A DNA stretch of 26,414 bases from Escherichia coli (GTDB lineage Bacteria > Pseudomonadota > Gammaproteobacteria > Enterobacterales > Enterobacteriaceae). Shown in pieces: positions 1 through 3,000 of the stretch (position 1 is the first letter of the stretch; each line of letters begins with the position of its first letter). Position numbers: made by a program. The DNA lies in assembly GCF_003334815.1 (NCBI RefSeq), contig NZ_QOWO01000047.1. One strand, given 5' to 3'.

Positions 1-3000
1 TGCAGTTGCCATGTTTTACGGCAGTGAGAGCAGAGATAGCGCTGATGTCCGGCGGTGCTTTTGCCGTTACGCACCACTCCGTCAGTAGCTGAACAGGAGG
101 GACAGCTGATAGAAACAGAAGCCACTGGAGCACCTCAAAAACACCATCATACGCTAAATCAGTAAGTTGGCAGCATCACCGAAATTCAGTAGATTGACGC
201 TGGGTGTTTTGCTGGCACTAAGCGGTTCAGCGTCTGGTGCAAGTCTGGAAGTTGATAATGATCAGATTACCAATATTGATACTGATGTTGCTTATGATGC
301 CTACCTGGTTGGCTGGTATGGCACTGGAGTGCTTAATATTTTGGCTGGCGGTAATGCCTCCTTAACCACTATTACTACCAGCGTCATTGGCGCTAATGAG
401 GACTCAGAGGGCACCGTTAATGTTTTGGGTGGCACCTGGCGATTGTATGATAGCGGAAATAATGCAAGGCCTTTAAATGTGGGTCAATCCGGAACGGGGA
501 CGCTGAATATTAAACAGAAGGGTCACGTCGATGGAGGCTATTTAAGATTAGGTTCTTCGACAGGAGGCGTCGGGACGGTCAATGTTGAGGGAGAGGACTC
601 TGTTCTGACGACCGAATTATTCGAAATAGGTAGCTATGGCACAGGTTCATTAAATATTACGGATAAGGGTTACGTCACGAGTTCAATCGTCGCCATTTTA
701 GGCTATCAGGCGGGCAGTAATGGCCAGGTTGTCGTTGAAAAGGGTGGCGAGTGGCTAATAAAAAATAATGATTCCTCAATTGAATTTCAAATTGGTAATC
801 AAGGAACTGGGGAGGCGACTATTCGCGAGGGGGGGTTGGTTACGGCTGAAAATACGATTATCGGTGGCAATGCCACCGGTATCGGAACCCTGAATGTGCA
901 GGATCAAGACTCTGTCATCACGGTACGCAGACTCTATAATGGATATTTCGGTAATGGCACAGTCAATATTTCCAATAATGGACTGATTAATAACAAAGAA
1001 TATTCATTGGTGGGCGTTCAGGACGGTTCCCACGGTGTCGTCAACGTGACCGATAAAGGGCATTGGAATTTCCTCGGAACGGGCGAAGCTTTCCGCTATA
1101 TCTATATCGGTGATGCTGGCGACGGTGAACTTAATGTCTCGAGTGAAGGCAAAGTAGATTCGGGAATTATCACTGCGGGGATGAAAGAAACAGGCACAGG
1201 CAACATTACTGTTAAGGATAAGAACTCCGTTATCACTAATCTCGGAACTAATCTTGGTTATGACGGCCACGGCGAAATGAATATCAGTAATCAGGGGCTT
1301 GTTGTCAGCAACGGAGGAAGTTCACTCGGTTATGGAGAAACCGGCGTCGGGAATGTCAGCATCACCACGGGGGGAATGTGGGAGGTCAATAAGAATGTCT
1401 ATACCACCATTGGTGTTGCGGGCGTCGGAAACCTCAATATTAGCGATGGCGGTAAGTTCGTATCGCAAAATATTACTTTTTTGGGCGATAAAGCAAGCGG
1501 TATCGGCACACTGAACCTGATGGATGCGACATCATCGTTCGATACTGTGGGTATCAATGTCGGTAATTTTGGTAGCGGTATCGTAAATGTCAGTAATGGT
1601 GCCACCCTTAATTCAACGGGCTATGGATTTATCGGAGGAAATGCCTCCGGTAAGGGGATAGTTAATATTTCAACGGACAGTCTCTGGAATTTAAAGACAT
1701 CATCTACTAACGCACAATTGCTACAGGTCGGTGTATTAGGCACGGGTGAACTGAATATTACCACCGGAGGTATAGTTAAAGCGCGTGATACACAGATAGC
1801 TCTCAATGACAAAAGTAAGGGCGACGTGAGGGTGGATGGGCAGAACTCTCTTCTTGAAACATTCAATATGTACGTAGGGACATCTGGTACGGGTACGTTA
1901 ACCCTGACGAATAACGGTACGCTGAATGTCGAAGGTGGAGAAGTTTACTTAGGTGTTTTTGAGCCTGCTGTAGGAACGCTAAACATTGGTGCTGCTCACG
2001 GTGAGGCGGCGGCAGATGCCGGATTTATCACCAATGCGACGAAAGTGGAGTTTGGTCTTGGCGAAGGCGTTTTTGTCTTTAATCATACCAATAACAGTGA
2101 TGCCGGCTACCAGGTCGATATGCTGATTACAGGTGACGATAAAGACGGAAAAGTGATCCATGATGCAGGCCATACGGTGTTCAATGCAGGGAATACTTAT
2201 AGCGGTAAAACGCTGGTCAATGACGGCCTCCTGACCATTGCGTCTCATACGGCAGATGGGGTAACGGGCATGGGGTCGAGTGAAGTAACCATTGCAAACC
2301 CCGGTACGCTCGACATTCTCGCATCAACGAACAGTGCAGGAGATTACACGCTGACCAATGCGCTCAAAGGCGATGGCTTGATGCGAGTGCAGCTGTCATC
2401 CTCCGACAAGATGTTTGGCTTTACCCATGCAACAGGGACTGAATTCGCCGGTGTTGCCCAACTGAAAGACAGTACCTTCACTCTGGAACGCGACAACACC
2501 GCTGCGCTTACTCACGCGATGTTGCAGTCTGACAGTGAAAATACCACATCGGTAAAAGTTGGAGAGCAATCCATTGGTGGACTGGCCATGAATGGAGGTA
2601 CCATCATTTTCGATACGGATATTCCTGCTGCGACGCTCGCGGAGGGATATATCAGCGTCGATACGCTGGTTGTCGGCGCGGGTGACTACACCTGGAAAGG
2701 CCGTAACTATCAGGTAAACGGGACGGGCGACGTGCTTATCGACGTGCCTAAACCGTGGAATGATCCCATGGCGAATAACCCTCTGACGACGCTCAATTTG
2801 CTGGAACACGACGATAGCCATGTCGGCGTTCAACTGGTGAAGGCGCAAACGGTTATTGGGTCGGGTGGCTCATTAACGTTACGTGATTTACAGGGCGACG
2901 AGGTGGAAGCGGACAAAACGTTACACATTGCGCAAAACGGAACGGTGGTCGCCGAGGGTGATTATGGATTCCGCCTCACGACCGCACCAGGTAATGGTTT

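Follow-up and report, generated by a model that had tools for sequence, protein, structure and literature searches.

The window analysed here is a stretch of 26,414 nucleotides (nt) from Escherichia coli (contig NZ_QOWO01000047.1 of assembly GCF_003334815.1), which carries near its beginning, on the plus strand at 181-5475, a disrupted type Va autotransporter gene of the ECSE_1600 family. The best explanation for the long run of coding repeats at its positions 293-2011 is that they are 22 ancient, diverged beta-helix turns of about 26 residues that form the stalk of the passenger domain, fixed in number and carried by a dead gene; we put the probability of this explanation at roughly 0.87. An earlier note, made from the sequence alone, had described the run as a beta-helical array of 19-20-codon units that is prone to recombination, variable in repeat number between strains and liable to confound short-read assembly. 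Its place, motif and count of the repeats were confirmed, its period and its claim of instability were not, and a super-period of four units had escaped it.

The array corresponds to amino acids (aa) 43-615 of the open reading frame (ORF) 167-3964, in near-exact agreement with the 300-1980 given previously. Anchoring on the motif resolved 22 units where at least 15 had been claimed. The strict core G-x-G-x-[LV]-N-[IV], as originally proposed, was counted 11 times in the array, where 2000 shuffles lead one to expect 0.05 (maximum 3), and a relaxed form 24 times, where 1.3 would be expected. The anchors are spaced 24-30 codons apart (mean 26.1, standard deviation 1.9), which is not the spacing of 19-20 codons that had been read from the translation. 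Protein autocorrelation showed no signal at lags 19-20 (z = 0.3), reached z = 3.1 at lag 26 and had its maximum at lags 104 and 105 (z = 5.5 and 5.0), the multiple-lag threshold of 3.5 being the 95th percentile of the per-shuffle maximum. The maximum lies at these long lags because the units keep a four-unit order: after a leading C-D pair they follow each other strictly as A-B-C-D, five times over, with a four-unit spacing of 104.2 ± 1.5 codons.

The four unit types are recognizable by sequence. A units (25 aa) read phi-x-phi-G-x-x-G-x-G-x-L-N-[IV]-x-x-G-G-x-V and B units (24 aa) phi-G-x-x-x-x-G-x-G-x-[LV]-N-V-x-D-x-[DN]-S-V-[IL]-T, C units (26 aa) have an aromatic residue ahead of G-x-G, and D units (29-30 aa) contain Trp and have a longer tail. 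Amino acid identity is 30% within a type and 22% between types, and whole super-repeats are 26-36% identical. All units lie on the plus strand, and their limits rest on the unit table, the alignment and the predicted strands, three in each of the leading units, with the additional support of the lag of 104/105 for the first super-repeat. The leading units C0 (aa 43-70) and D0 (aa 71-99) occupy 293-463 and are followed by super-repeat 1 with A1, B1, C1 and D1 at 464-775 (aa 100-203), super-repeat 2 with A2, B2, C2 and D2 at 776-1090 (aa 204-308), super-repeat 3 with A3, B3, C3 and D3 at 1091-1393 (aa 309-409), super-repeat 4 with A4, B4, C4 and D4 at 1394-1711 (aa 410-515), and super-repeat 5 with A5, B5, C5 and D5 at 1712-2011 (aa 516-615), in which D5 is degenerate and ends the array. 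Two antisense ORFs on the minus strand within the array, at 1004-1270 (88 aa) and 1621-1866 (81 aa), are probably spurious, as nothing supports them.

Both the type of repeat and the gene, which is inactivated here, have been described before. The NCBIfam model TIGR04393 ('T5SS/PEP-CTERM-associated repeat', 49 positions) matches it in nine stretches with 177.2 bits (E = 4e-53, cut-off 23), one copy of the model covering two array units. The consensus of distant homologues, L-x-V-G-x-x-G-x-G-x-L-x-I-x-x-G-G-x-V ... I-G-x-x-x-G-S-x-G-x-V-T-V-x-G-x-G-S-x-W, has the same two-unit period, and Trp recurs in its alternate units. In the E. coli protein, by contrast, every second copy lacks Trp (B units end in S-V-I-T) and the A and C units are unlike, and with alternate copies thus differentiated the effective period is four units, or about 105 aa. 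Among 1.84 billion representative proteins, repeats of this type were found in 3127 clusters at E ≤ 1e-3 and in 1253 at E ≤ 1e-10; many of the proteins are matched in several places, and their lengths reach 3878 aa. On aa 1-900, Pfam yielded no model for the array, only a weak, sub-threshold PATR match at 667-691, outside it.

The beta-helix suggested in the earlier note is borne out by prediction. AlphaFold2, given aa 39-628 and an alignment of distant homologues (19 sequences), produced an all-beta model with 64 short strands (mean pLDDT 92.9, pTM 0.91), whose confidence dips at residues 161-170, 261-270 and 471-480, the long tails of D units. Mapped on the units, the predicted strands form an identical pattern of three in every unit: strand 1 covers positions ~1-6 and leads into a turn that includes the first Gly of G-x-G, strand 2 spans 6-7 residues along G-x-[LV]-N-[IV]-x, and strand 3 follows after a G-G turn. 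In a Foldseek search of the PDB the model was placed closest to Ag43 (7koh, 4kh3, 7ko9, 7kob) and TibA (4q1q), with probability 1.0, and next to SPATE passengers, Hap, pertactin, phage tailspikes and pectate lyases, all of them right-handed parallel beta-helices. The fold class is thereby supported by the model, although the predicted turn geometry differs from that of Ag43 and TibA. Across three indel-free orthologues the motif positions G10 (95%), G12 (100%), L14 (89%), N15 (91%) and I16 (100%) are conserved and the x positions are the least conserved (57-59%), which is consistent with a structural core and a variable surface.

We picture the region 293-2011 as coding for the N-terminal stalk of the ECSE_1600-family passenger, in which each unit would account for a single turn, made of three strands, of a right-handed parallel beta-helix. 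A turn would consist of a strand ending in phi-G, the G-x-G turn, the long strand x-[LV]-N-[IV], the G-G turn and a short third strand, with the hydrophobic side chains and the Asn of the long strand, that is, the L, N and I of the motif, probably pointing inward to the core. Two such units make up one TIGR04393 repeat, and the differentiation of alternate copies turns this into a four-turn period of ~105 residues, of which there are five and a half rounds. The stalk of an intact allele would be exported via the C-terminal barrel and displayed on the surface in the manner of an adhesin, as suggested by the family, and the number of units appears to be fixed across E. coli and in Pseudocitrobacter.

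The first alternative to be weighed is that of a recombination-prone tandem coding array, whose unit number would vary between strains as in a contingency locus and which would collapse in short-read assemblies. We consider this very unlikely. A repeat at the protein level does not imply genetic instability; it is the nucleotide identity between units that decides. Neighbouring units do not have the high nucleotide identity of a contingency array; aligned by codons they are 38-43% identical, with a maximum of 57% (free-gap alignments of super-repeats give inflated values of 58-67% with 37-75 gaps, and the codon-aligned identities were used instead). Tandem Repeats Finder returned nothing in window positions 1-5600 at a minimum score of 30, and a repeat finder detected only families of 14-30 nt on the motif codons, 64-86% identical. 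Within 293-2012 no exact direct repeat is longer than 10 nt, which is the level of chance (codon-shuffle mean 10.6, maximum 13), and the array has no repeated k-mer of 12, 15, 21 or 31 nt. The self-dot-plot that had been recommended as a check shows a faint in-frame signal: 231 windows of 21 nt, 93% of them at in-frame lags, have 15 or more matches, compared with 43 ± 15 in codon shuffles (about 5-fold), and in the nucleotide autocorrelation only the lag of 315 nt rises above the shuffle threshold (33% vs 28% identity, z = 4.4). Its matches are isolated patches over the motif that form no diagonals. Units with about 40% identity and no shared k-mers offer no substrate for homologous recombination, slippage or collapse in k-mer assembly, so the predicted confounding of short-read assembly is not to be expected.

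Constancy of length argues in the same direction. Of the 4175 gene-carrying E. coli genomes, two systematic spread samples were queried, one with the window allele and the other with an O55:H7 allele, and single-piece matches to positions 181-2100 (95.3-100% identity) spanned exactly 1920 bp in 49 of 53 and 51 of 54 cases, i.e., in 100 of 107. The seven exceptions differ by -1 nt (four times), -2, +4 and -19 nt, and gain or loss of a whole unit or super-repeat was not seen among the 107 matches. These samples also contained insertions of IS1, IS2 and IS3, 5' truncations and two deletions, of 30 and 628 nt. The unit count is also constant in orthologues, a comparison that the earlier note had suggested: protein P0061 aligns over 695 residues at 79% identity with zero gaps, and the Pseudocitrobacter vendiensis orthologue has 1806 aa, as the intact E. 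coli allele does, with 88.7% identity overall, 82.7% in the array and no internal gap. The array of the latter is thus more diverged than the whole protein, with no indels over 1806 residues. Judged by what that note had itself named as refuting it, a dot-plot free of nucleotide periodicity or orthologues with the same unit count and no length variation, its claim of instability largely fails. A difference in unit number between strains or orthologues, as expected of a contingency array, was not seen in the sampled genomes or in the two orthologues.

Several points nevertheless weigh against the explanation we favour, and the first two speak at the same time for an unstable array. Array-internal in-frame deletions occur in 10 of the 50 listed proteins that have both flanks, with losses of 74 to 272 aa and nine distinct junctions in the ten proteins. 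The array is not absolutely invariant in complete genomes either, as one of them has a 628-nt deletion, which removes about two super-repeats, and another a 30-nt deletion. The length test covered a sample of about 115 of the 4175 genomes and is not a census. The Foldseek matches have low TM-scores (0.23-0.34 when normalised by query and, for TibA, 0.67 by target), which is consistent with a shared fold class of different turn length, and the equation of one unit with one helix turn is suggested by the DSSP pattern of the model. The repeat type has no experimental structure, the sequence search of the PDB being empty and Pfam lacking a model for the array, and the adhesin function would follow from family membership.

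The deletions themselves do not behave as products of the repeats; they are illegitimate events in a frequently decaying gene. Only one of the ten array-internal deletions is near register (D3+14 to D4+13), which is roughly the chance expectation, and the ends of about 50 further listed deletions are spread across residues 319-968 and 380-1600 of the intact protein, over the whole passenger instead of being concentrated in the array. In 59 of 64 cases 0-2 residues are common to both sides of the junction, and three deletions in complete genomes show 1-4 nt of microhomology at the DNA level. The protein database listing from which most of them come was limited in length (proteins of ≤1223 aa against 1806 aa in the intact form) and enriched in truncated and deleted forms, so that allele frequencies are not estimable from it. 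A related case that speaks for an unstable array is the repeat-rich region of upaH, whose assembly in the CFT073 genome was faulty (Celik et al. 2012, PMC3419190). The UpaH protein of uropathogenic E. coli, a large autotransporter of the AIDA-I type, has a long array of repeats in its passenger too; the array in our window, however, has no recurring k-mer of 12 nt or more, so no misassembly is expected. The length of the gene varies by insertion sequences, homopolymer frameshifts and illegitimate deletions and not by the array, which is safe for short-read assembly and a poor marker for typing or copy number. Beyond correct annotation, the significance of this is small.

Some observations on individual deletion alleles may be added. 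About 60 distinct in-frame internal deletion alleles are listed, at about 1120-4970 in window coordinates, all with the ESPR signal and the barrel kept, and the allele that joins residues 1-825 to 1463-1806 is present on 103 contigs. That the in-frame deletion alleles could be de Bruijn assembly collapses was considered and rejected, as no k-mers are shared at the junctions. E. coli O145 RM8988-C1 has a 246-nt in-frame deletion at 3170-3415, in the distal passenger outside the array, with 1 nt of junction homology. In NZ_CP013662, identity to the window near position 1250 is 96.7% upstream and 99.3% downstream of the 30-nt deletion, a sequence pattern which suggests a mosaic allele from recombination between strains.

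The second alternative, that the array is the 19-residue repeat of self-associating autotransporters of the AIDA-I/Ag43/TibA type, with heptosylation as a possible implication, is in our view extremely unlikely. The helices of Ag43, TibA and AIDA-I have turns of about 19 residues, and the 19-20-codon period of the earlier note would fit AIDA-I and Ag43 and not the array in the window. The passengers share the type Va architecture and the right-handed three-stranded beta-helix, here predicted, Ag43 and TibA are the closest structural neighbours, and the C-terminal half of the protein matches AIDA-I and MisL models at the domain level. Against this stand the turns of 24-30 residues with no autocorrelation signal at lags 19-20 and the TM-scores of only 0.23-0.34 by query given above. 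There is also no detectable sequence similarity of the array, since Pfam reports no AIDA-type repeat in aa 1-900 and the sequence search of the PDB, with Ag43 and TibA included, found no relative of it. The AIDA-I model NF033176 reaches 360 bits against a cut-off of 1200, in the barrel half only, and with lsrK and hipB as its neighbours the gene has no glycosyltransferase next to it. A negligible chance is left for the third alternative, by which the repeats would be a composition effect of a low-complexity, beta-rich sequence with much Gly, Asn and Thr, for while the low pairwise identity of the units (22-30% aa) and the sub-threshold signal at lag 26 taken alone would suit it, it is contradicted by the motif excess over shuffles, the regular four-unit spacing with its signal at lags 104/105, the match of an independent curated profile shared by 3127 clusters and the same predicted strand pattern in each unit.

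The assignment of the array to an autotransporter passenger, already made in the earlier note, holds, although this passenger belongs to a gene that is doubly inactivated by IS1 and a frameshift. Positions 181-5475 correspond, but for one missing G, to nt 126-5421 of an intact allele with 1806 codons, as supported by the model NF011422 ('ECSE_1600 family autotransporter'), the alignment to an intact allele and the synteny in RefSeq. The gene is split into two plus-strand ORFs, 167-3964 (1265 aa) and 3925-5475 (516 aa). The former, which contains the passenger, matches NF011422 over profile positions 42-1281 with 2788.3 bits and alone exceeds the cut-off of 2335, and the latter matches positions 1291-1806 with 1228.6 bits. 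The C-terminal autotransporter beta-barrel, a 12-stranded outer-membrane domain, lies with its linker at 4090-5472 on the plus strand, out of frame with the passenger, and is matched by TIGR01414 in aa 56-516 of the downstream ORF (E = 6.9e-122). Of the remaining type Va features, a beta-helical passenger between signal peptide and barrel is predicted by the model, and the N-terminal Sec signal peptide of the extended ESPR type is missing from the window copy. Intact alleles begin with MNRIYRVIWN... and carry Pfam PF13018 (ESPR) in precomputed matches.

In RefSeq genomes the syntenic gene is annotated between lsrK and hipB, and the window copy shares with the family both the gene and this locus between lsrK and hipBA, with 99.9% identity to intact alleles over nt 126-5421; it differs by an IS1 at codon 42. 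We take the gene to be the K-12 pseudogene yneO, formerly ydeK/ydeU. The literature contained no functional study of yneO, ydeK, ydeU or TIGR04393 that we could find, the one useful source being the SE11 genome paper. There, the intact 1806-aa autotransporter ECSE_1600 is listed for strain SE11, the gene is disrupted in MG1655, E24377A and O157 Sakai, and the B2 strains CFT073, UTI89 and 536 are without it (Oshima et al. 2008, PMC2608844). Its presence in 4175 of 5426 complete E. coli genomes agrees with this reported absence from B2 strains. Near-identical E. coli-like fragments of the gene (92-100%) were also seen in three assemblies labelled as a Candidatus Nanosynbacter metagenome-assembled genome, Marinomonas sp. 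and Limosilactobacillus vaginalis (L010, L012 and L013), and are probably contaminant contigs.

The copy in the window is dead, doubly inactivated by an IS1 insertion and a G8-to-G7 frameshift, so that no phenotype should be attributed to it. The window edge cuts the IS1 element, of which the terminal 180 nt remain at 1-180 on the minus strand with the inverted repeat end ...GGCAGCATCACC; positions 1-180/188 are 97-99% identical to annotated IS1A/IS1B transposase elements. The IS1 end is inserted in codon 42 with its junction at 180/181, and the alignment to the intact allele NZ_CP116913 (1806 aa) starts at position 181, which is gene nt 126. Because of this insertion, the promoter and the first 41 codons with the ESPR signal-peptide extension are missing. 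The listed reading frame opens with a TTG at 167 that, like its first five codons (MAASP), comes from IS1, in a chimera with the inverted repeat. This TTG-initiated ORF (MAASPK...) still encodes the signal peptide's hydrophobic core. None of the 5426 complete E. coli genomes searched has exactly this junction of IS1 and gene. Other strains have IS1, IS2 or IS3 at nearby or other sites of the gene, an example being an IS1B with a 9-bp overlap at 1873-1881 in strain 44.

Apart from the IS1, the window differs from the intact allele NZ_CP116913 by one missing G and one substitution only. The missing G lies in the first poly-G tract at 3886-3892 (plus strand), which has seven G here and eight in intact alleles; this shifts the frame between passenger and barrel and results in two overlapping ORFs instead of one. 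The G7 form also occurs in O55:H7 DEC5A, and G8 in six other loci, including three annotated intact alleles. An 87-nt query around this tract was matched, in a spread sample of 58 genomes, over 86 (once), 87 (5 times), 88 (46 times) and 89 nt (6 times), lengths which imply G6, G7, G8 and G9, respectively, and 349 records are identical to the G7 version of the window. A second poly-G tract, 120 nt downstream at 4009-4015 (plus strand), is G7 both here and in the intact allele. Together the two tracts bracket the junction between passenger and barrel. The K-12 MG1655 record NZ_CP014225 has G8 in the first tract and an extra G, thus also G8, in the second; this extra G is its sole length difference from the intact allele, and the gene is annotated there as frameshifted. 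The inactivating tract is therefore the first in the window and the second in the K-12 record, and the frameshifts of the K-12 record, the window and O55:H7 are independent.

The length differences of the poly-G tracts could be slipped-strand variation, and an equally good explanation for part of them is homopolymer error in long-read assemblies. To our knowledge, slipped-strand phase variation has rarely been documented in E. coli. A bolder interpretation would see in the TIGR04393 array a structurally uncharacterised class of beta-helix, with turns of ~26 residues, a four-turn super-period and a surface of x positions and long D-unit loops that evolves faster than the remainder of the protein, and in the two poly-G tracts slipped-strand switches that turn an adhesin on and off; we regard it as unlikely. 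Rfam, applied at gathering thresholds to the whole window, gave no match. Directly downstream of the autotransporter gene lies the toxin-antitoxin pair hipB-hipA (5680-7286), where the mechanically called ORF 5907-7286 (459 aa) begins upstream of the annotated hipA start and overlaps hipB.

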